From a virus, in IMG/VR virus record IMGVR_UViG_3300040801_001099, positions 1 through 39,953 of that record: 39,953 nucleotides of DNA. One strand, written 5' to 3'. This document shows, piece after piece, positions 1 to 39,953 of the stretch. The position numbers and the translations under genes are program-made. The notes below the pieces were generated by a model. That model was given only the letters and a program-made list of their open reading frames with translations, was not told the origin of the DNA and did not search any database. How positions within the stretch are numbered: position 1 is the stretch's first letter; the number at the start of each line of letters is the position of its first letter.

Positions 1-270
1 ATTGGAAACTATGCGTTCAGCAACTGCTCCGGTTTCACCGGAAGTCTGACTATCCCTGATTCCGTCACCACGATTGGAAGCGGTGCGTTCTACAGCTGCT
101 CCGGTTTGACCAATGTAAACTGCTACGTCACCCGCACGATCATGAACGCAACCAACGCCCTCATGAGCACAGGAGTCACCACCCTCCACGCCCGTGCATC
201 CGATGGAACATGGACGGCGGGCCCAGACACCATCGGCGGAAAAGCCCTCACCGTCATCAAAGACCTATGA
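1..270 (+). CDS. Tail fibre / receptor-binding protein, C-terminal end (continuation of 38155..39953 across the circular junction)
   Basis: Frame 1 is open from nt 1 to TGA 268-270. It translates IGNYAFSNCSGFTGSLTIPDSVTT IGSGAFYSCSGLTNVNCYV..., which are BspA-type (LRR_5-like) leucine-rich repeats. It is absent from the ORF track only because it has no start inside the window. Confidence 0.8.
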   Translation: MGNYAFSNCSGFTGSLTIPDSVTTIGSGAFYSCSGLTNVNCYVTRTIMNATNALMSTGVTTLHARASDGTWTAGPDTIGGKALTVIKDL

Positions 271-1064
271 AAACCATCCACTACACATCCGGCCTCCCAC
301 GCGCTTGCAGTACCCTCTTGCAGAACCTGCTCGCCCAGAATCCACGTGTCCATGCTACGGGAACCTCTGGCGTTCACGAAATCATGTATCTCTCCAAGGC
401 GTTCTTCAAGACAGAGGAGTTCCGCACGATCCCCGACCCGAAGCAAGGGGAAGCCCTATACCTCGACTTCATGCGCTCCGGTATCCAGAATGCCTTTAAC
501 GCCGTTACTGACCGCCCTATCGTGGTAGACAAATGCCGCTCTTGGATTGGCAGCGCAAACCTACTGTTCCAACTGTTCCCCAAAGCCAAGCTCCTCGTCC
601 CCGTGCGGGACATTCGCGGCGTGCTCTCCAGCATGGAAAAGAAGTACCAACAGCATCCCGGATTTCAACTCGAATGCTCCCAGCAGGACACCGGAAGGGT
701 TCAGACCATTGAAGGACGTTGCCAGTTCTGGCTAGACAGTGCTCCCGTAGGCATCGCTGTCCAGCGTATCCACGAACTCGCGAAGAACCACCGGGACAAG
801 GTCCTGTTCGTCCACGCGGAAGACCTGACCACTGACCCACAGACCACCATGAACCGCGTCTGGGAATACTTGGGTGAAGAACCGTTTATCCACAATACTC
901 AGAACGTCGAACAGTGCACGCAGGAACACGAACTAGGCTGGCCTTTCGGAGACCACACCATCCGCCCCGAAGTCAAGCCTTTGAAACCCGATTGGCATGA
1001 CACGTTGGGTCGACAGTTGTCAGAGGCTCTCAACCAGAAATTCGGATGGATCAACCAACTTTAA
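267..1064 (+). CDS. Sulfotransferase-family protein (Sulfotransfer_3-like)
   Basis: ATG 267 overlaps the fibre stop (ATGA). SGLPRACSTLLQNLL resembles the PAPS 5'-phosphosulfate-binding loop (GLPRSGST type). VPVRDIRGVLSS resembles the 3'-phosphate-binding RDxxxxxxS motif. The track ORF 210..1064 has an unlikely N-terminal extension. Confidence 0.7.
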   Translation: MKTIHYTSGLPRACSTLLQNLLAQNPRVHATGTSGVHEIMYLSKAFFKTEEFRTIPDPKQGEALYLDFMRSGIQNAFNAVTDRPIVVDKCRSWIGSANLLFQLFPKAKLLVPVRDIRGVLSSMEKKYQQHPGFQLECSQQDTGRVQTIEGRCQFWLDSAPVGIAVQRIHELAKNHRDKVLFVHAEDLTTDPQTTMNRVWEYLGEEPFIHNTQNVEQCTQEHELGWPFGDHTIRPEVKPLKPDWHDTLGRQLSEALNQKFGWINQL

Positions 1065-31857: not shown

Positions 31858-32529
31858 ATGAAAGCGTACACGAAAGCAAAGATACAGCCGTTGATAGAGA
31901 AGCATCAGCGGATGTTGACGCTTGATGACGTTGACGTAATCGTTGAGTTAGACGAGATCGCAGGGCGCATTGAGAATGCGGTAAAAGTGATTGTTGACAA
32001 GGATTGGTTTGAGATCGATGGCAAGTTTTTTAAGAAGCCTACGTTCGCCCGAGAGCAACTGATTCAACGCATCCGAGAAGCTTACCCAAGCGGTAGGTTT
32101 GATGTCGCAGGTGTGCTTTACGCATTGGACCTCAATCGAACTGAAGCAGAGATCCAAAGCGTACCGTCACGAGCCAGGCTATTGAAATACGTCCTGACGC
32201 TCGACATTGGCATATCGAAAGCCGTAAGCAAGATTGAAGAAGTGTTCGGACTCACAGAAGATGCCGACGAGCCATCCGAGCCGTTTGACCCGTGGCATTT
32301 GTGTGCTGTGTTGTCTCGTGAGATTGGTGGCACACCGGATGATTGGTTTGACGCATCGCCACAGAAGATCAAAGGCGCAATCCGAGCGCACGAAGAGAAA
32401 ATCGAGGCGGAGTCTAAAGCGATGGGTGTGGCATCTGGCCCGCCCCGTGAAACACCGAAGCTGTTGGCTATCGTAGAGTTCAGAGACAAAATCAAAGCGT
32501 TGGAGGCATCATGGCTGGCGGTGGCGTAA
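31858..32529 (+). CDS. Tail assembly chaperone-position protein 2
   Basis: First ATG inside track ORF 31816..32529 (which has a TTG start). Its end overlaps the tape-measure start. Confidence 0.5.
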   Translation: MKAYTKAKIQPLIEKHQRMLTLDDVDVIVELDEIAGRIENAVKVIVDKDWFEIDGKFFKKPTFAREQLIQRIREAYPSGRFDVAGVLYALDLNRTEAEIQSVPSRARLLKYVLTLDIGISKAVSKIEEVFGLTEDADEPSEPFDPWHLCAVLSREIGGTPDDWFDASPQKIKGAIRAHEEKIEAESKAMGVASGPPRETPKLLAIVEFRDKIKALEASWLAVA

Positions 32530-33962
32530 GAGTAGACATCACAGCAAACAGCCGTGGCTTCCGCCGTGGCATGAACAGCAATAAGAGCTTCCTTGCAAGG
32601 TGGGCGAAGTCTGTTGCGAATAAGATGGCTGCCGCTGGGCGAAACATCGGTCGTCGACTGGTGCATGGCATCACGTCCACCATTCGCCGTGGAGCGATGG
32701 TCGCTGGCGGATTGCTGGTGGCGGGAGTCGGCAAGTCAATCAGCGAAGCCGGGCGGTTTGAAGCATACGAAATGCAGTTCGACGCATTGCTTGGTGGTGC
32801 TGAAGAAGCCAAGAAACGGATGCAGGAGATCCGTGACATCGACTTGGAAGTGCCATTCGACATCACGAGCATCACCGACGCAAGCCGAATCCTGACAGTG
32901 TTCACCAATAACGCTTTCGCATCTACTGATGCATTGCGCATGATGGCAGACGCGGCGGCGGTGACACCCAACGACATCAAAGACGTAGCGTTCTGGTATG
33001 GTCGTGCATACTCCATGATCCAATCTGGCAGACCGTTCGGTGAAGCTGCAATGCGCTTGCAGGAAATGGGTCTGCTTACTGGTGAAGCACGAAACGAGAT
33101 GGAGAAGTTTTCTGGAGTTAAGAGTCCACAGGCTATTGCCAAAATGATGGACTTGCTGAACGCTGAGTTCTTGAAGTTTGAAGGCTCGTCCGACAGACTG
33201 ATGAAAACATGGAAAGGTATCTCATCCGTGTTCTCGTCTGCTGTGAAGCAGTCATTCGCCGCCGTTGGCGACGAGATTCTGCCACTAGCGAAAGTGTGGC
33301 TCCAAGAGCTGATTGATAAGATGGCGCAGTTGAGAAACAATGGCACGCTGACTCGGTGGGGGCAGAACGTTTCTAAAGCGTTGGAAGATGTCAGGGATAA
33401 AGTTAAATCTCTTTTTGGCGTACTAAAAGGCAGGTTCGACTTTGCAAAAGCTCATGGTGCAACAGACACGCAAGCTGTTGTAGAGGCAATACTAGGGGAC
33501 AAGCAATCTCTTTCAGCCGCTATACATGACAGGCTTAATGGTGTATTGAAGTCAATCGGAAATTGGGTTGAAAAAAACAGTCCTGCGATAGCTCAGGTCG
33601 GGTTGACAATTGGTGGTGCAGTCGCAAAAGGAATTTGGGACGGTTGGACGAGCTTCGTTACAAAAGATAAAATACAAACCTGGATGCGTGATAGCGTCCC
33701 GCTTGGGAATTTTATTGGTTCTTCGGCAGACGTGGTTGGGTCTACTTCAGGTGGGTCAACGGACAAAGACGCTTTGATGAAGGCTGTCTCGGAAAGTTAC
33801 AGACTAACATTCAAGGCGTTAAATCCTGTCATTTATGGTTTAACAAAATTACAAATGTCCATGCCACAAGGAGGGCTTTCTCCAGCACAAGAAAAACAAA
33901 GGCAAATTGAATTGCTACAAAGTATAGATAACAAGCTAACTAAACCACCGGAGGCTCCGTAA
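32511..33962 (+). CDS. Tail tape measure protein
   Basis: 483 aa and helical. GKSISEAGRFEAYEMQFDALLGGAEEAKKRMQEIRDIDLEVPFDITSITDASRIL resembles the TP901-type tape-measure core. Several antisense track ORFs here are shadows. Confidence 0.8.
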   Translation: MAGGGVRVDITANSRGFRRGMNSNKSFLARWAKSVANKMAAAGRNIGRRLVHGITSTIRRGAMVAGGLLVAGVGKSISEAGRFEAYEMQFDALLGGAEEAKKRMQEIRDIDLEVPFDITSITDASRILTVFTNNAFASTDALRMMADAAAVTPNDIKDVAFWYGRAYSMIQSGRPFGEAAMRLQEMGLLTGEARNEMEKFSGVKSPQAIAKMMDLLNAEFLKFEGSSDRLMKTWKGISSVFSSAVKQSFAAVGDEILPLAKVWLQELIDKMAQLRNNGTLTRWGQNVSKALEDVRDKVKSLFGVLKGRFDFAKAHGATDTQAVVEAILGDKQSLSAAIHDRLNGVLKSIGNWVEKNSPAIAQVGLTIGGAVAKGIWDGWTSFVTKDKIQTWMRDSVPLGNFIGSSADVVGSTSGGSTDKDALMKAVSESYRLTFKALNPVIYGLTKLQMSMPQGGLSPAQEKQRQIELLQSIDNKLTKPPEAP

Positions 33963-34372
33963 TGGCACAGCAAGAATGGATTTTAGGCAACTTTAGAGAG
34001 TACTACGACAGGTGGGAAGACGACGACCAGATTACTGGTGAAAAACTTCAGTATCGACAATACCGCTATTCTGTCGAGCGGTTCGCAAAATATGTTCCGC
34101 CATTTACGTTAACCTTGTTCACTATTGACTATTCGGGAAGCCCTAGCGAAGTTGATGTCAATGCCTGTGGGCAGTCTGTAGATGTTCAAGATCTCCGAAC
34201 ATCTAACGAAGAAGAATATGGCGAAATAAGGCTCATGGATAGAACCTTGCAGTACAATCAAGGTGAATCCGGTATTCTGCTTGTATCAGAGTCTTGGGAA
34301 AGCGACGGGTACGGCGTTGAGTATTGGTCTGCCACAGATGGACAATGGAAGCCTGTGGTGAGCGAGGCGTAA
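33962..34372 (+). CDS. Distal tail protein candidate
   Basis: 136 aa with a TAATG overlap with the tape-measure gene. Confidence 0.5.
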   Translation: MAQQEWILGNFREYYDRWEDDDQITGEKLQYRQYRYSVERFAKYVPPFTLTLFTIDYSGSPSEVDVNACGQSVDVQDLRTSNEEEYGEIRLMDRTLQYNQGESGILLVSESWESDGYGVEYWSATDGQWKPVVSEA

Positions 34373-34953
34373 TGAGCGCAAACATCCGCAGAGTAGGGTC
34401 GTCTGTATCTGAAGCCAGCCCTTCTTTTTTGAGAAAGGCAAAGAACTTCATGTCTAATTGGGAGGTGAGCGGAGGCTCGTTCTCTTTCGACGGCTATCGG
34501 GTTAGGTTGCGGATACCGACGACTACATCTTCTTTGACGCCTTCACCTTGGCAAACCACACGCAATGACGATGGCGATACAAAGCGGGTTAGCGTAAGAC
34601 CCGGCACGATCAACAGCATCGTCCCTACAGACATCTTTGACCCTATAGAGATAACAGGAACGGTAACCGAGTACATTGTGTTGACCATGACAAGCACTGC
34701 CGGAAGTCCCGTTTCTGCATCATTATCAAAAGAAACAACATATCCTGTTCCGAGTGCCACAACCCCCAGCCATCCACCAACCGAGGTGAAGGATGTTATT
34801 GCCGTCATTGGCAATGGAGTTGTATACCAAGTGCGAGACACAAATCTTGTGGCTACCAGCGTAGAGGTATATCAAGAGACGGTGGCAAATCCCGCTGTTG
34901 GAGAAAGACAATACATACCTTGGTATAGATGGGAGATAACATCAAGTGATTAA
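34372..34953 (+). CDS. Tail tip / baseplate protein candidate
   Basis: Internal ATG of track ORF 34324..34953 with a TAATG overlap. Confidence 0.5.
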   Translation: MSANIRRVGSSVSEASPSFLRKAKNFMSNWEVSGGSFSFDGYRVRLRIPTTTSSLTPSPWQTTRNDDGDTKRVSVRPGTINSIVPTDIFDPIEITGTVTEYIVLTMTSTAGSPVSASLSKETTYPVPSATTPSHPPTEVKDVIAVIGNGVVYQVRDTNLVATSVEVYQETVANPAVGERQYIPWYRWEITSSD

Positions 34954-37108
34954 CGGAAACACAATAGTAAATTTGACAGATAGATTTCCTCAAGAATTTA
35001 CGTCGAAGACATATACATCTCATACTGGTGACACAGGCTCATATACAGATGTTGTTCCTACATCTGTATCCACTGGTCCTGTATCAAGAACAACAACTCA
35101 GTTCTCTGGACATAGAGGCGATTTTTATAGTGATGCATTAAGGTCTACTTTCTCAGATGTATCTTTTTATGACAGATGGAATAGCACTATTTATAATGAG
35201 AAACCAAACGCACTCGCAAGTGCTCATTTATCTTATTGGACAACTTATGAGTATACAGGTAATGTATTAGGTGTAACCTATGGTACTATTAACGGATATA
35301 CTTATAATAATGCGCAATCTTGGCCTTTCACTCCTACCACAAACACTACAATCAATGAGACTATTTTAGATTCTACTAGAAGAACAACATATGGTCAAAC
35401 AGATTATACCGCTAATGGTACTACTACTTCTGGTTTTACAAGCTTTTATACAGACACAGATACAATACCTACGACTGGAACATACGGCATTGTAACTTAT
35501 GGAGCAATAGGTACAAGCACTGATAGTGGATTCTATACCACAACTGCTAGTAAAACAGATGTTTCAACTTCATCAACTCGCAGAACAATTACTACAGATT
35601 CTTCTCTACGTTCGACAACATTTACCTCTTTTTATACATTAGGTCAAACCACTGTACCTGCATATTGGGCCAATTACAATGAAAGACTTGCTTATGTCTT
35701 ACCTGTTAGTGGATATCCAAGAGATGTCGTTGAGTGGTCAGTTGCTTATAGTGATTTAGGAACAAAAATTGATGCTGGTGCGCAATTTCCTTCTGAAGGT
35801 GCTAATTTCTTAACATCCGTATATGATACTCAAACAGAGATAAAAACGAAATTAAAAACAACTACAACTAATACAACTTCGTTTCAAGCTTTCTCTCTAT
35901 GGCCTACTCATAATGCAGAGGCTACTTATCATTCTACTTCAAGTTCAACTGTTTCTACAACGTATCAAGAGCAATCTGTTGACACGGATGGTAAATTATT
36001 CGTATACTCATCTACATCTTCGCATCCATATACTAATACGTATACATTAGCATCTACTATACCTGTTACTATTTCACTTACAACAGCTACTACATCTGAG
36101 TGGACTGGTGGATTTTATACCGAGGCAAGAAGTAAGCTTGGGAATATCACATATTCATTGTCAGGTGGAAGATATATAATGTCAAAAAATGGTAATGAAA
36201 TAACTTATTTGACTACTTATGGAGGTTCTAACAATAGTGTAGATGCATTTTCATTAGCTAATGTGGTAAGATTAAGCACTCAATATACTACAGCTGAGAA
36301 CGTAGCTATGACATATTATGGTGGACCAACATATATAACCTCTGACACAGGTTTTTACTCATACGTAGACTCGTATTTAAGCGATGCAGATTCTACCGTA
36401 ACTCAAGCAAAAATTCAAAGAAGTGACATGTTATCCGTTGGAGGTACTACTTCTTCTATACCATTTACTCAAGCATTTGGTCTTGCTCAAACTTATCAAA
36501 CAGCAGCAGGAATAACTCCATCTGGTGACATGTCATATGATAATGGGTTTGGATTAGGATTTTCTATTCCTGCAAACATCTCTTTTGTTGATTTCACTAC
36601 ATCATCTGTTTATAATGGTGGAGTAATGTTAACAACTGCAACTGGAGACTTATATAAGGCATCTCAATCGATAGACTCTGTATCAGCTACAACCTATGGC
36701 ACATCAATTAAGACAACTGGCACTGGCACTGGCACTGGTACTGTATCCACTACAGATGCATCTCTCACAACGTCATATAGTGGATTAATAAACACTGAAA
36801 TATCATGGGATGCTACTCATTATACTAATAATTTAATTCTTGCAGGAGAAGGAGAAGCATCTTTTGCTAATAATGGTTTTGACGGAGATGTTGACTTACA
36901 CATAAGAGGCGTCTATAAGATCACTACTTTTGACCCGACTGGCGGTGAAATTGCGACATATAAATCGACATATGCAGGAGATAACACTATAAGTATTACA
37001 GGCGGAGATGGGCTAGTATTATATAAAGGTGGCACTAAGTTATTAACCCTTGGATTTAGCTCAGTTGCGTCTACTTTTAGGAGTATAACAAAATTTACAA
37101 AAACATAA
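34946..37108 (+). CDS. Thr/Ser/Tyr-rich, Cys-free 720-aa fibre/adhesin-like protein (low-GC gene)
   Basis: GTG start with GGGAG 10 nt upstream. It is an uninterrupted 2.16-kb ORF with an abrupt drop in GC. Contains runs such as TTTTNTTS, TSSSTVSTTY and TTGTGTGTGTV. Confidence 0.7.
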   Translation: MINGNTIVNLTDRFPQEFTSKTYTSHTGDTGSYTDVVPTSVSTGPVSRTTTQFSGHRGDFYSDALRSTFSDVSFYDRWNSTIYNEKPNALASAHLSYWTTYEYTGNVLGVTYGTINGYTYNNAQSWPFTPTTNTTINETILDSTRRTTYGQTDYTANGTTTSGFTSFYTDTDTIPTTGTYGIVTYGAIGTSTDSGFYTTTASKTDVSTSSTRRTITTDSSLRSTTFTSFYTLGQTTVPAYWANYNERLAYVLPVSGYPRDVVEWSVAYSDLGTKIDAGAQFPSEGANFLTSVYDTQTEIKTKLKTTTTNTTSFQAFSLWPTHNAEATYHSTSSSTVSTTYQEQSVDTDGKLFVYSSTSSHPYTNTYTLASTIPVTISLTTATTSEWTGGFYTEARSKLGNITYSLSGGRYIMSKNGNEITYLTTYGGSNNSVDAFSLANVVRLSTQYTTAENVAMTYYGGPTYITSDTGFYSYVDSYLSDADSTVTQAKIQRSDMLSVGGTTSSIPFTQAFGLAQTYQTAAGITPSGDMSYDNGFGLGFSIPANISFVDFTTSSVYNGGVMLTTATGDLYKASQSIDSVSATTYGTSIKTTGTGTGTGTVSTTDASLTTSYSGLINTEISWDATHYTNNLILAGEGEASFANNGFDGDVDLHIRGVYKITTFDPTGGEIATYKSTYAGDNTISITGGDGLVLYKGGTKLLTLGFSSVASTFRSITKFTKT
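36716..36742 (+). repeat. Hexanucleotide microsatellite (ACTGGC)x3-ACTGGT-ACT encoding (TG)4T
   Basis: Read directly from the sequence. Confidence 0.9.
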
Positions 37109-37125
37109 AAACCTAAAGGACAACA

Positions 37126-38142
37126 ATGAAAATCGTATGCACAATCGCAGGAACCCACTCTTATCAATACGCCTTGGACAACTGTGTCCGCAGAATACAG
37201 GCGGCGGTGTTTCACGCAAGAAGCAGATATGAAATTGATTTTGAGATTGTTATTTCAACCGATCAAGAAGGCGTAGAGTATGCCAGAAAGGTATGTCCGA
37301 ATGCACATATAGAAGTGTCAACGAGGTCTGAAGATAAAGTAAGGTACAAAGAGAAGGCGCAGTTGTTAATTGCTGACTTACAGCAAATGGGATTCCGCAA
37401 AGCCATAGAGCTTGGCGCAGACATGTGCTGGTGTGTGGAGTCTGATATTCTGGTCCCTTATAATGCCCTGTCTTGCTCCTTGGACATGCTACAGTTTGAT
37501 GACGGGTATTATGACGTGGCATTCGTGACATACCCTTCCCACAGCGGAGCAGCGTTCCTCGGCGGTCACGGAAGCCCGTCGCATCCGATAGAAGAAGACC
37601 ACTTGCCTGAAGAGCGAGATGTACCTGAAGAACTTCAAACTCGATTTGACGAGGCAAAAGCAAAAATAGAGAAAAAAGACCCGAAGGCAGAAGACGTTAA
37701 AGCCTTCCACGACATCATGGAAGAGGTCAAGAAATGCCCACCGAAGGGGAACATATTTGAGCTGAATGCGAAGAAGTGGAGACGCAGGGGCTGGTTTGAC
37801 AATGCACACCCTGGTATCGGTCGGGGAGCTGTCCTTGAGACAGATTGGACGGGTCTGGGTTGTAATCTATTATCACGGCGTGCCTTGGCTCTTGCGGCAT
37901 TTGACGGGTATGAAGGCAAAGGCACTCAAGATTTGTTCTTAAACTGGAGACGCTGGAAGGCTAACGATTTGAGGTTCTGCGTTATATCACATTGCGTTTG
38001 CGAACACGTTGTAACCAGAGATGACGGGTCTAGAATAGTTGCCTTTGCCCATCACGAACCGCAGGGCGAATGCAAGGGGCATTTGCGGATTCAGCAAGTG
38101 CCGTATTTAAACGGCGTTGACAAAAACGTAGAAAACGTATAA
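37126..38142 (+). CDS. GT-A-like (nucleotide-sugar transferase-like) protein; function tentative
   Basis: The 338-aa ORF is solid (AAAGGAC RBS). The function is inferred only from its layout: an N-terminal MKIVCTIAG strand, an acidic WCVESDILVP where a DxD motif would sit, and a later GLGCNLLSRRAL. Confidence 0.45.
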   Translation: MKIVCTIAGTHSYQYALDNCVRRIQAAVFHARSRYEIDFEIVISTDQEGVEYARKVCPNAHIEVSTRSEDKVRYKEKAQLLIADLQQMGFRKAIELGADMCWCVESDILVPYNALSCSLDMLQFDDGYYDVAFVTYPSHSGAAFLGGHGSPSHPIEEDHLPEERDVPEELQTRFDEAKAKIEKKDPKAEDVKAFHDIMEEVKKCPPKGNIFELNAKKWRRRGWFDNAHPGIGRGAVLETDWTGLGCNLLSRRALALAAFDGYEGKGTQDLFLNWRRWKANDLRFCVISHCVCEHVVTRDDGSRIVAFAHHEPQGECKGHLRIQQVPYLNGVDKNVENV

Positions 38143-38154
38143 GGTGAAAAAATC

Positions 38155-39953
38155 ATGACAGACACAGCCACAATCAGAAAGCATCTAATCAAATCAGATT
38201 TCAGCGGAGCGTCTGAGGCTGAACAGTTTGAGTTCTACCAAGCGGAAACACTCCAGCTTGAGTTCGTTGCCACATCCAAGTGGGACGGACGTGTGGACAT
38301 GCCTCAAGGAGGTTCTTGCAAGCTCGAAGCATGGCTCGCATCAGACCCTAGCACACTTTACGTCAACAAAGTAGGCACAGTATCCGCCGACACCGACAAA
38401 GCCACTGTGTCGCTGTCCCGTGCCGAGAGCAATATGCCAGCGGGAACGTACACGTACACCGTGAAGGTATTCGACGCTGACGACACCATGACGGGTGTTG
38501 TCGCTGGTGGCACATTCGTCGTGAACTATGCTCCTGACAGCGACGCTGTGGACTACGTTGGCACAACGACCTACCCTGTTGCGAGCGACATCACGTATGA
38601 CAACGCCACGAGCGGATTGACAGCAGACAATGTGCAAGATGCGATTGACGAGCTGGAGGACGAGATTGACGTCGCTCTTGTTGGCGAATGGGGCGAGATC
38701 ACAGGAACGCTGTCCGACCAGACGGATTTGCAAGATGCTTTGGATGGAAAGGTAGGCACAGGTGACTCCCGCCTAACAGACGCACGAGAATGGACAGCGG
38801 ATACAATCGACCAAGCGGAAGCAGAAGCAGGCACAGCGACGACAAGACGGGCGTTTACTGCATTGCGTGTCCGGCAGGCGATTGCGGCTTGGTGGGCGGG
38901 AATCACAAGCATTACCATCAACACAGTCAAAGCCCTGACCGCCTCCGGCATAGCCCTGAAAGACTCCGACGATGTAACACAAGCGACGATCAACAACCTC
39001 GGCATTGTGACGGGAGACGGAACGCGAACCGCCTCAACCGGATGGGCGCGTATTGCTAGTTTTGCTGCTGCATCGATAGCGCAAATGAACCGGGCTACAC
39101 CGTCAGATTTCGCATCGTTTAATTTCAAAACCAATAATGTGGATTATTGGGCGATGGGGCTGTCTTCAAACGAGACGTCCGCCAACGCGTGGACGTTTCG
39201 CAATCTGATTTCAGGCGTCAACACATTCTGGCTGGATGTGACAACGAACTTCGGACACTTTTTGATTGGTATCATCTCGCCAATCATCAAAGCCGCCAGT
39301 GCCGCAGGCATCGCATTCCAAGACGACACAGGCACGACGCAAGCGACGATTGACAGCACGGGACTTGCGCTGACCACCGACCTTGCAGTCACACACGGCG
39401 GTACGGGTGCGAGTACGGCGGCGGATGCACGCACGAATTTAGGCGCACTCGGCATAACAGAAACAGCCTCCGACGTAAACCCCGCAGGAACGCAGATTGC
39501 GGCGGCTTTGGGAGCTTTGGCGTTCACCCTCAACGACGTTGCCAACAACGCCGCAAAGCTGGCCCTGACCGGAATTGATGCGGGACACATCGTGCGTGTG
39601 ACGGTTGAGGCGAACAGGGTTGAGCAGTACATCGGTGGGACGATCAGCGATGAGTCGAGTTGGAGGACACTACCAGCTTCGTCCGACCTGCAACATACGC
39701 AAACCCCGACCTTCGTCAAGACCGCCAGTGCCGTCACCGATTTTATTCTCGGGGACATCCCGGATAACTGGAAGGGCGCCGTAGGCACACTCACGGGGCT
39801 GTCCTTGGGGTCTTCCGTCACCACGATTGGAAACTATGCGTTCAGCAACTGCTCCGGTTTCACCGGAAGTCTGACTATCCCTGATTCCGTCACCACGATT
39901 GGAAACTATGCGTTCAGCAACTGCTCCGGTTTCACCGGAAGTCTGACTATCCC
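38155..39953 (+). CDS. Tail fibre / receptor-binding protein, N-terminal 599 codons (continues at nt 1-270 or 57-270 across the junction)
   Basis: I translated frame 1 from ATG 38155 (GGTGAAAAAATC upstream) to the window end and found no stop. It contains classic fibre motifs: GDSRLTDAREWTADTIDQAEAEAGTATTRRAFTALRVRQAIAAWW and THGGTGASTAADARTNLGA. It ends in LRR units. It is missing from the track because it has no stop in the window. The antisense ORFs 38341..38733, 38571..39134 and 39144..39824 are shadows. Confidence 0.85.
   Translation, partial: MTDTATIRKHLIKSDFSGASEAEQFEFYQAETLQLEFVATSKWDGRVDMPQGGSCKLEAWLASDPSTLYVNKVGTVSADTDKATVSLSRAESNMPAGTYTYTVKVFDADDTMTGVVAGGTFVVNYAPDSDAVDYVGTTTYPVASDITYDNATSGLTADNVQDAIDELEDEIDVALVGEWGEITGTLSDQTDLQDALDGKVGTGDSRLTDAREWTADTIDQAEAEAGTATTRRAFTALRVRQAIAAWWAGITSITINTVKALTASGIALKDSDDVTQATINNLGIVTGDGTRTASTGWARIASFAAASIAQMNRATPSDFASFNFKTNNVDYWAMGLSSNETSANAWTFRNLISGVNTFWLDVTTNFGHFLIGIISPIIKAASAAGIAFQDDTGTTQATIDSTGLALTTDLAVTHGGTGASTAADARTNLGALGITETASDVNPAGTQIAAALGALAFTLNDVANNAAKLALTGIDAGHIVRVTVEANRVEQYIGGTISDESSWRTLPASSDLQHTQTPTFVKTASAVTDFILGDIPDNWKGAVGTLTGLSLGSSVTTIGNYAFSNCSGFTGSLTIPDSVTTIGNYAFSNCSGFTGSLTI
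39826..39953 (+). repeat. Nucleotide-identical 72-nt (24-aa) LRR units in tandem
   Basis: 39826-39897 equals 39898-39953 over the 56 nt available, and also equals window nt 1-79 (divergence begins at nt 80). Each unit encodes IGNYAFSNCSGFTGSLTIPDSVTT. Confidence 0.9.

Follow-up and report, generated by a model that had tools for sequence, protein, structure and literature searches.

A mosaic tail module of uncultured phages combines a hypervariable threonine-rich protein with a divergent, predicted GT-A-fold glycosyltransferase

The viral DNA analysed here (IMG/VR record IMGVR_UViG_3300040801_001099; the window, 39,953 nt in full) carries, behind its tape-measure gene, a mosaic, exchangeable tail module of three genes, which encode the small conserved protein p193, a Thr-, Ser- and Tyr-rich protein of 720 aa (T720) and a protein of 338 aa with a predicted GT-A fold (GT338). 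In related loci, the place of T720, hereafter referred to as the slot, is occupied by proteins that have lost all alignable sequence but still resemble one another in composition, size, beta-ladder periodicity and codon bias. We tentatively propose, at slightly less than an even chance, that T720 is a hypervariable tail-tip or host-recognition protein, that it is O-glycosylated by GT338, and that the AT bias of its gene is maintained. Composition, predicted fold, synteny, module-level mosaicism, hypervariability and host signal are shown by the analysis; the location of T720 in the virion, as well as the acceptor and chemistry of GT338, are inferred.

Compositional analysis revealed that T720 consists of 19.9% Thr, 12.2% Ser, 9.2% Gly and 7.2% Tyr, and contains no Cys, in agreement with an earlier sequence-only reading of the same DNA, which had described the protein as Cys-free with about one Thr in five residues. 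The Thr content of the other 33 plus-strand open reading frames (ORFs) of at least 100 aa in the window is 5.9 ± 2.7%, with a maximum of 12%. T720 has four full-length homologues (62–66% identity), and its ratio of nonsynonymous to synonymous divergence (dN/dS) is about 0.19 when compared with the homologue from the related locus L001; thus, it is a real gene. The family is small, with only five relatives (P0121–P0125) found in protein libraries of 5.8e9 and 1.84e9, and a HMMER scan of the 1.84e9 representatives with profile A2 returned three proteins only. Searches of Pfam, PHROG, NCBIfam and PDB with T720 gave no match. Three parts of T720 are conserved throughout its family and in the most distant relatives: an N-terminal motif of 12 residues (MINGNTIVN), residues 232–311, and the C-terminal third, for which residues 515–696 were compared with L009 and P0125.

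A scan of IMG/VR yielded 209 loci encoding the glycosyltransferase (GT), 80 of which were kept, and the statistics on upstream ORFs refer to 76 loci, that is, kept loci plus four fetched earlier, in which the upstream sequence was long enough. The ORF immediately preceding the GT-A gene has a median length of 749 aa, a median Thr content of 14.6% (background median 5.5%, 95th percentile 12.4%), and a median Thr + Ser + Tyr (T+S+Y) content of 35% (background 15.6%, 95th percentile 27.8%). The ORFs located 3′ of the GT gene are not hydroxyl-rich (median T+S+Y, 16.5%). Four contigs reached through homologues (L001, L003, L005 and L007) share the order of tape-measure protein (TMP), small protein(s), Thr-rich protein, GT and fibre(s). 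The mechanically called ORF of p193 starts with TTG at 34324, and its likely start is the ATG at 34372. Using tblastn, homologues of p193 were found in 34 loci, with 24–66% identity and mostly 1.8–4.4 kb upstream of the GT-A gene; the p193 alignments (A3, A4) show conserved PGTiN and WYRW motifs, and searches of PDB and PHROG found no relative of this protein. In the reverse search from p193, for which a 6-sequence profile was used because a 26-sequence profile was too divergent for the locus scan, nine out of nine loci were found to carry a GT-A gene about 2 kb downstream.

The genes following the GT differ between the loci. In L005, an NAD-dependent NDP-sugar epimerase/dehydratase is encoded immediately 3′ of the GT (L005:11033-12019), while a 798-aa tail protein of the SGNH/GDSL-hydrolase type is encoded two genes downstream in L003 (L003:12412-14808). 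In L007, a contig of Kiritimatiellota B1221, the GT-A gene is directly followed by a gene for a 462-aa protein with 52% Ser (L007:11083-12471), in which a folded domain of about 120 aa at the N-terminus gives way to SSxSS(E/D) serine repeats over about 330 aa. This serine-repeat protein resembles serine-rich-repeat adhesins.

A scan of 185,579 species genomes found nine loci with the GT, seven of which are in assemblies from the PVC superphylum: Kiritimatiellota B1221, three Planctomycetota, Opitutales, Verrucomicrobiia and Terrimicrobiaceae. Most of the genome loci retain the Thr-rich gene followed by the GT, the exceptions being L100 and L101. These few copies on genome contigs point to the PVC superphylum (Planctomycetota, Verrucomicrobiota, Kiritimatiellota) as the source of hosts, and the carriers of the module are a large uncultured group of long-tailed phages.

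All-against-all BLASTP divided the slot proteins into at least 34 clusters unlinked by BLAST, and hhalign comparisons between the cluster profiles gave probabilities below 3%, so homology among the slot proteins is not demonstrable by either method. A jackhmmer search from T720 over 62 slot proteins recruited that of L001 alone. Likewise, 60 slot proteins (A5) had no Pfam match and one marginal PHROG match, and nothing was found when three slot-family profiles were compared with PDB. The slot lies in the tail module, distal to the tape-measure gene, and evolves fast, as is expected of a fibre or receptor-binding protein (RBP). In these searches, slot proteins showed no homology to known fibre, spike or hub families, and the comparison of T720 with the slot protein of locus L009 did not show a layout in which the N-terminus is conserved and the C-terminus varies. 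Based on the position after the tape-measure gene and on the hypervariability, T720 is a putative component of the tail tip or of the host-recognition apparatus.

For dipeptide and periodicity statistics, one representative of each of the 34 clusters was used. Across these slot families, the patterns [ST]x[ST] (z = 9.4), TxTxT (z = 7.5) and [ST]Y (z = 7.4) are enriched, and TP (z = −6.9) and PT (z = −5.4) are depleted. T720 itself has 2.6% Pro and a longest Ser/Thr run of six residues, and no internal repeat was detected by self-BLAST. The mucin-like (PTS) stalk that had been offered earlier as one option for this protein is thus rejected, given the low Pro content, the lack of tandem repeats and the depletion of TP and PT. 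Together with the enrichment of [ST]x[ST], these features suggest that T720 is built of beta-strands with hydroxyl-rich faces.

The structure of GT338 was predicted by AlphaFold2 (AF2) from a 42-sequence alignment with a pLDDT of 93.1 and a pTM of 0.89. Foldseek analysis of this model revealed 289 PDB matches with E-values of 1e-3 or lower, and all of the named enzymes in the top 50 are GT-A-fold glycosyltransferases, as the sequence-only reading had supposed from the layout of the ORF. The top match is human COLGALT1 (9evj; E-value, 1.7e-10; TMq, 0.48; 11% identity), and further structural neighbours are mimivirus R699, SpsA, TarP, KfiA, ppGalNAcT-2 and STIV A197. Three of the best neighbours, namely COLGALT1, mimivirus R699 and ppGalNAcT, are protein-glycosylating enzymes. 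COLGALT1 belongs to GT25, but the scores of other GT-A families are no more than a few orders of magnitude away from that of this top match. In BFVD, Foldseek matched GT338 to glycosyltransferases of giant viruses and phages.

In the GT338 model, an ExD motif (E105-S106-D107), a variant of rather than a strict DxD, follows strand 100–105 at the end of beta4, the usual position of DxD, and D46 is located at the end of beta2 (strand 38–45). Among the 42 sequences of the family, D107 is invariant, and D46 and E105 are conserved in at least 90%. Invariance of the nucleotide- and metal-binding motifs argues for retained catalysis, and GT338 would thus be catalytically equipped. Two further features are an insertion of roughly 90 residues (~140–235) and a set of family-wide invariant Cys and His residues (C246, H289, C292, H294 and H319, in GLGC, H-x2-C-x-H and GHLR) in proteins with 8–14 Cys each; judging from its conservation, this set suggests an additional metal site, either structural or catalytic.

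GT338 has 278 homologues, and searches of Pfam (even at E ≤ 1), PHROG, NCBIfam and PDB sequences with GT338 gave no match. The model PF00535 (Glycos_transf_2) is matched by four of the 42 family members (best E-value, 1.9e-6), the family profile (A1) found nothing among PDB sequences, and tblastn against 50,697 phage records returned no match, so that no cultured phage record among them contains this GT. Since the fold and motifs are clear, while only four of 42 members touch PF00535, GT338 represents a divergent GT-A family, a new sequence family within a known fold that lies outside current sequence models. On the strength of the structural model, GT338 can be confidently described as a divergent protein of GT-A fold, and it is a predicted soluble glycosyltransferase.

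Comparison with two of the related loci revealed how the module is inherited. The window and L001 share positions 34542–38106 only, a stretch that covers T720, the GT and the C-terminal portion of p193, with 71–73% nucleotide identity; no similarity was found between them in the head and major capsid protein (MCP), tube, TMP or p136 genes, and their capsid proteins belong to different families (PF05065, HK97-type, in L001 and PF20911 in the window). By head and tail genes, the closest relative is L009 (MCP, 70% identity; tube, 79%). Its slot protein differs: only residues 515–696 of T720 (36488–37033, corresponding to L009:9348-9914) are conserved, with 31% identity, and the first ~500 residues are otherwise unalignable. 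GT338 is 88% identical to the GT of L001, which stands next to a member of the same T720 family, compared with 72% to the GT of L009. Thus, the module is exchanged as a unit between otherwise unrelated phages, a point that the earlier reading had named for checking.

The T720 gene stands out by its base composition. Its GC content is 0.363, compared with 0.485 for the window, and reaches 0.362, 0.534 and 0.193 at the first, second and third codon position, respectively; GC at the third position (GC3) of 18 other genes of the window, including the neighbouring ones, is 0.47–0.69. Relative to 2163-nt windows not overlapping T720 (mean GC, 0.489; sd, 0.033; minimum, 0.420), the gene has the lowest GC of all segments of this length, about 3.8 sd below the rest. 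The counts made earlier by hand on single 60-nt lines, 23/60 G+C (35041–35100) and 17/60 (36181–36240) in T720 against 33/60 (33001–33060) in the tape-measure gene, turned out to be exact, and both sliding-window GC and codon-usage analyses, which had been advised as a check, demonstrated a strong anomaly with inverted synonymous choice. In T720 versus the 18 other genes, TAT accounts for 90% vs. 39% of the respective codons, TTA for 63% vs. 9%, AGA for 78% vs. 17%, and ATA for 47% vs. 15%. No tRNA genes able to offset these rare codons were found. Promoter-like matches were concentrated inside the T720 gene, and were regarded as a compositional artefact of its AT-richness.

Such a composition could be explained by recent import of T720 and the GT-A gene from a low-GC donor, in which case the GC dip would be foreign DNA not yet ameliorated. 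The codon usage of T720 is typical of a genome with ~30–35% GC, and the 5′ edge of the dip is sharp (GC falls from 0.49 to 0.33 at ~34900), with a softer recovery at the 3′ side (37100–37400), which extends into the first ~300 nt of the GT gene. Moreover, low-GC relatives of the module exist (L007; GC, 0.34; GC3, 0.15), and both the different slot protein of L009 and the occurrence of the module in the unrelated L001 would agree with such a transfer. However, T720 alone is AT-rich, while the co-transferred p193 (GC3, 0.47) and GT (GC3, 0.50) are of normal composition in the window. The synonymous divergence (dS) between the window and L001 is 1.83 for p193 and 1.49 for T720, and gave no computable value for the GT, meaning that synonymous sites are saturated, yet the Thr-rich gene alone is AT-rich in both genomes (GC3, 0.19 in the window and 0.28 in L001, with flanks of 0.47–0.50 and 0.37–0.44, respectively). 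The dip is also recurrent. Among 61 non-redundant loci, slot GC3 is below that of other genes in 85% (median, −0.108); with one representative per cluster, the median GC3 difference is −0.066 and 79% of the differences are negative (Wilcoxon p = 6e-5); and in 13 of 34 loci no gene has a lower GC3 than that of the slot, versus 3.1 loci expected. A dip that is one-sided over the loci, and almost never positive, would not result from random transfers.

A recent genomic island was therefore rejected, as the atypical composition is confined to T720 and dS against L001 is 1.5–1.8 or saturated, and import from a low-GC donor is considered very improbable. From the saturated dS and the gene-confined dip in both genomes, we conclude that the low GC3 is a maintained, gene-specific AT-rich codon bias of the slot and not the scar of a recent import. 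The earlier description of the region as a foreign cassette thus holds in so far as the unit travels and its GC anomaly is strong, but fails with respect to recent acquisition. The bias may be due to slow translation, to a low level of expression, or to mutation towards AT in a gene that evolves fast.

In the arrangement proposed here, T720 would be a beta-strand-rich protein of the tail tip or of the host-recognition apparatus, and GT338, a predicted soluble enzyme of the cytoplasm, would be encoded in the position usual for a fibre maturation factor. GT338 would most likely use a nucleotide-sugar as donor and glycosylate hydroxyls of Thr, Ser or Tyr on exposed faces of T720, and this modification before tail assembly would give a glycan-decorated tail tip. 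Hints at glycosylation come from the protein-glycosylating structural neighbours of GT338, the epimerase of L005, the 52%-Ser protein of L007 and the precedent of mycobacteriophages discussed below.

Several points weigh against this proposal. The presence of T720 in the virion and its glycosylation are deduced from the genes, and AF2 gave no usable model of T720 (pLDDT, 27; 4-sequence alignment). Conservation of the C-terminal third rather than the N-terminus between T720 and the slot protein of L009 is the reverse of the usual fibre layout. Beta-structure and binding surfaces can account on their own for the richness in Thr, Ser and Tyr, and known bacterial glycosylation sequons are not enriched in the slot (D[ST][AILMTV], z = −0.6; NxS/T, z = −1.9). 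A conserved enzyme whose acceptors have no common sequence would have to recognise composition or structure. Gene adjacency is expected for any linked function, and O-antigen-converting gtr genes of P22-like phages also adjoin the tailspike gene. As the loci were recovered using the GT itself as a query, the frequency of the GT cannot be judged from them. Finally, two of the genome loci, L100 (a 1.19-Mb contig of a Planctomycetaceae metagenome-assembled genome, MAG) and L101 (an Opitutales MAG), have a GT-A homologue (42% and 37% identity, respectively) without a Thr-rich protein upstream, apparently fused into a 681-aa ORF in L101; these may be cellular or degraded-prophage copies, and as such could reveal the function of the enzyme outside the module.

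The same two copies would also suit an enzyme that acts on the host, glycosylating the cytoplasmic-face precursor of a surface glycan or glycoprotein used as the phage receptor, with superinfection exclusion or the prevention of progeny sticking to debris as the consequence. Adjacency to receptor-binding genes would then mean that the specificity for a receptor and the means of masking it are inherited together. Receptor-modifying genes are known beside RBP genes, as gtrABC of P22 by gene 9 and llp of T5 by the pb5 gene, and TarP is encoded by a prophage. Structural neighbours of GT338 include the envelope-glycan enzymes TarP, TarS, ArnC, KfiA, and chondroitin and hyaluronan synthases, and the accessory sulfotransferase and epimerase of some loci fit glycan remodelling equally well. 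On the other hand, conversion genes are usually sporadic morons, whereas the GT is found inside the tail operon, between the genes for the Thr-rich protein and the fibre, in essentially every recovered locus. Its identity stays at 38–88%, even though the recognition proteins on its flanks have become unrecognisably different. A masking enzyme would be expected to vary along with receptor specificity. Since GT338 is predicted to be a compact soluble GT-A fold and hydroxyl-richness is peculiar to the ORF just upstream of the GT, modification of the host is regarded as unlikely.

We consider it still less probable that GT338 has another role altogether, either acting on the fibre, another virion protein, a lipid or a small molecule, or serving as a catalytically idle assembly or structural protein of GT-A fold, with the composition of T720 reflecting only a beta-rich fold and a binding surface. 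Surfaces rich in Tyr, Ser, Thr and Gly are typical of binding sites, the slot gives no sequon signal, and the serine-repeat fibre of L007 is encoded 3′ of the GT. Nevertheless, downstream ORFs in general lack the hydroxyl-rich composition, and the invariant motifs speak for an active enzyme. The Cys content of GT338 (3%, versus none in T720) was read as fitting an intracellular enzyme and not a part of the virion.

The proposed glycosylation of T720 by GT338 is a variation on known themes, namely phage virion glycosylation and the pairing of a fibre gene with a maturation factor. According to PMC11600133 and PMC11256854, which refer to Freeman et al. 2023 (Cell Host Microbe), glycosyltransferases encoded by mycobacteriophages modify the phages' own capsid and tail-tube proteins, the phages named in these accounts being Che8, Corndog and other phages of clusters F and O. 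As far as these accounts go, the system resembles the one proposed here in that phage glycosyltransferases act on phage structural proteins in the cytoplasm. It differs in its targets (capsid and tail tube versus a hypervariable tail-tip protein whose glycosylation is conjectural), in gene location (towards the 3′ end of the genome or within a tandem GT/methyltransferase cluster versus a single GT-A gene in the tail-tip operon), and in its hosts (actinobacteria versus the PVC bacteria to which the genome copies point).

COLGALT1 (GT25; 9evj) and the mimivirus enzymes of R699/L230 type (9dyt) are the best Foldseek matches of GT338 (E-values, 1.7e-10 to 2e-8; TMq, 0.45–0.50) and share with it the GT-A fold and a metal-binding acidic motif. 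They modify hydroxylated residues on extended structural proteins, giant-virus fibrils among them, whereas the acceptor of GT338 would be T720. Unlike them, GT338 has the ~90-residue insertion and no lysyl-hydroxylase partner, and the resemblance is limited to 9–12% identity and a TM of ~0.5. The GtrABC enzymes of P22 and SfV and TarP of a Staphylococcus aureus prophage (6h1j) are, like GT338, phage-borne GT-A enzymes, often linked to tail or RBP genes. However, they are sporadic accessory genes, GtrB is membrane-bound, and their acceptors are bactoprenol or wall teichoic acid, while GT338 is predicted to be soluble, is conserved across related loci and is located inside the tail operon.

In the adhesin loci of Gram-positive bacteria for serine-rich repeat proteins (SRRPs; GtfA/B plus accessory GT-A), as in the module, a gene for a hydroxyl-rich protein stands beside a dedicated cytoplasmic GT; SRRPs, however, are low-complexity repeats exported by the accessory Sec system, while T720 has no repeats and is folded-looking and beta-rich. 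The pairs stf-tfa of lambda, gp37-gp38 of T4 and H-G of P2 are similar to the module in that a fast-evolving host-range gene is followed by a maturation gene and both are exchanged together. Proteins of Tfa type are small non-enzyme chaperones that co-vary with the fibre tip, in contrast to the conserved GT-A partner found here.

Table 1. Genes of the tail-tip block and its surroundings in the window
Feature	Position	Strand	Basis
Tape-measure protein, 483 aa	32511..33962	+	PHROG 973 tail length tape measure, E = 4.9e-9; other TMP PHROGs; weak PF20155
p136, small tail-module protein, family unassigned	33962..34372	+	Position in block
p193, conserved 5′ partner of the module	34372..34953	+	tblastn homologues upstream of GT-A
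T720, 720 aa, Cys-free, Thr/Ser/Tyr-rich, GTG start, GC3 0.19	34946..37108	+	Composition, homologues
GT338, 338 aa, predicted GT-A glycosyltransferase, conserved 3′ partner	37126..38142	+	AF2, Foldseek
Tail fibre, BspA-type leucine-rich repeat (LRR) tip	38155..39953, continuing at 1–270	+	PF13306 LRR_5, E = 8.4e-11
PAPS-type sulfotransferase, directly 3′ of the fibre	210..1064	+	PF13469, E = 2e-16; PF00685, E = 6e-7

The ends of the window (1–56 and 39898–39953) overlap exactly by 56 nt within the 72-nt LRR repeat units, and the contig is probably a complete genome of ~39.9 kb, circularly closed or terminally redundant, although the assembly may have collapsed some of the repeats of the fibre. 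Among the head genes of the window are those for a terminase of gpA type, a portal of lambda type and a capsid protein of GP7 type. The tail-tip gene block is opened by the tape-measure gene, followed by p136, p193, T720, GT338, the fibre with the LRR_5 tip and the sulfotransferase (Table 1). The stop codon of p193 overlaps the start of T720 by 8 nt, a gap of 17 nt separates T720 from GT338, and ribosome-binding sites precede both T720 and GT338 (AAAGGA in the latter case), the three genes being closely packed for translation. No matches for p136 were found in Pfam, PHROG and NCBIfam, and tblastn gave none among 87 related loci, its conservation being limited to the closest relatives. Judging from these searches, p136, p193 and T720 of the tail-tip block, together with the 60 slot proteins, appear to be structural dark matter of the adsorption apparatus. 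A blastn search with positions 32000–39953 against the 50,697 phage records gave no match, and a literature search found no description of the module.

Both the LRR-tipped fibre and the sulfotransferase that had been recognised downstream of the module in the sequence-only reading were recovered by profile searches. The frame of the fibre crosses the window junction and ends with a stop codon at 268–270, and its N-terminal 193 aa share 62% identity with the fibre of L009. The true start of the sulfotransferase is probably near 270. As it was found in three of the 87 related loci only, the sulfotransferase is an accessory gene outside the conserved module. Its only sequence matches in PDB are the protein-tyrosine sulfotransferases TPST1 and TPST2, with marginal E-values of 2e-3 to 7e-3, and its only match in NCBIfam is the carbohydrate sulfotransferase NoeE, far below threshold. 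The 7.2% Tyr of T720 makes sulfation of protein Tyr a lead, yet one that the rarity of the sulfotransferase among the loci restricts.

To our knowledge, essentially all documented cases of phage virion glycosylation concern capsids and tail tubes of mycobacteriophages. A wider reading, which we regard as doubtful when all of its parts are taken jointly, would describe uncultured phages, probably of PVC hosts, with a glycan-coated tail tip, a GT-A enzyme that recognises Thr-ladder beta-faces instead of the sequence of a freely diversifying protein, TPST-like sulfation of the glycan or of Tyr residues in some of the phages, and AT-rich rare codons that slow translation for folding or modification. 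If this wider reading were true, the module would be the first phage tail-tip glycosylation system and one defined by composition. The slot is a natural example of a protein class that retains its character without alignable sequence, and the lowered GC3 of a single gene, which persists although synonymous sites have reached saturation, is an evolutionary signal now amenable to testing. The GT338 family, with at least 278 members, no Pfam model and a fold recognisable by structure only, offers a practical marker of such modules in metagenomes. Should T720 indeed be glycosylated by GT338, virion glycosylation would be extended to the host-recognition apparatus and to phages of PVC bacteria.

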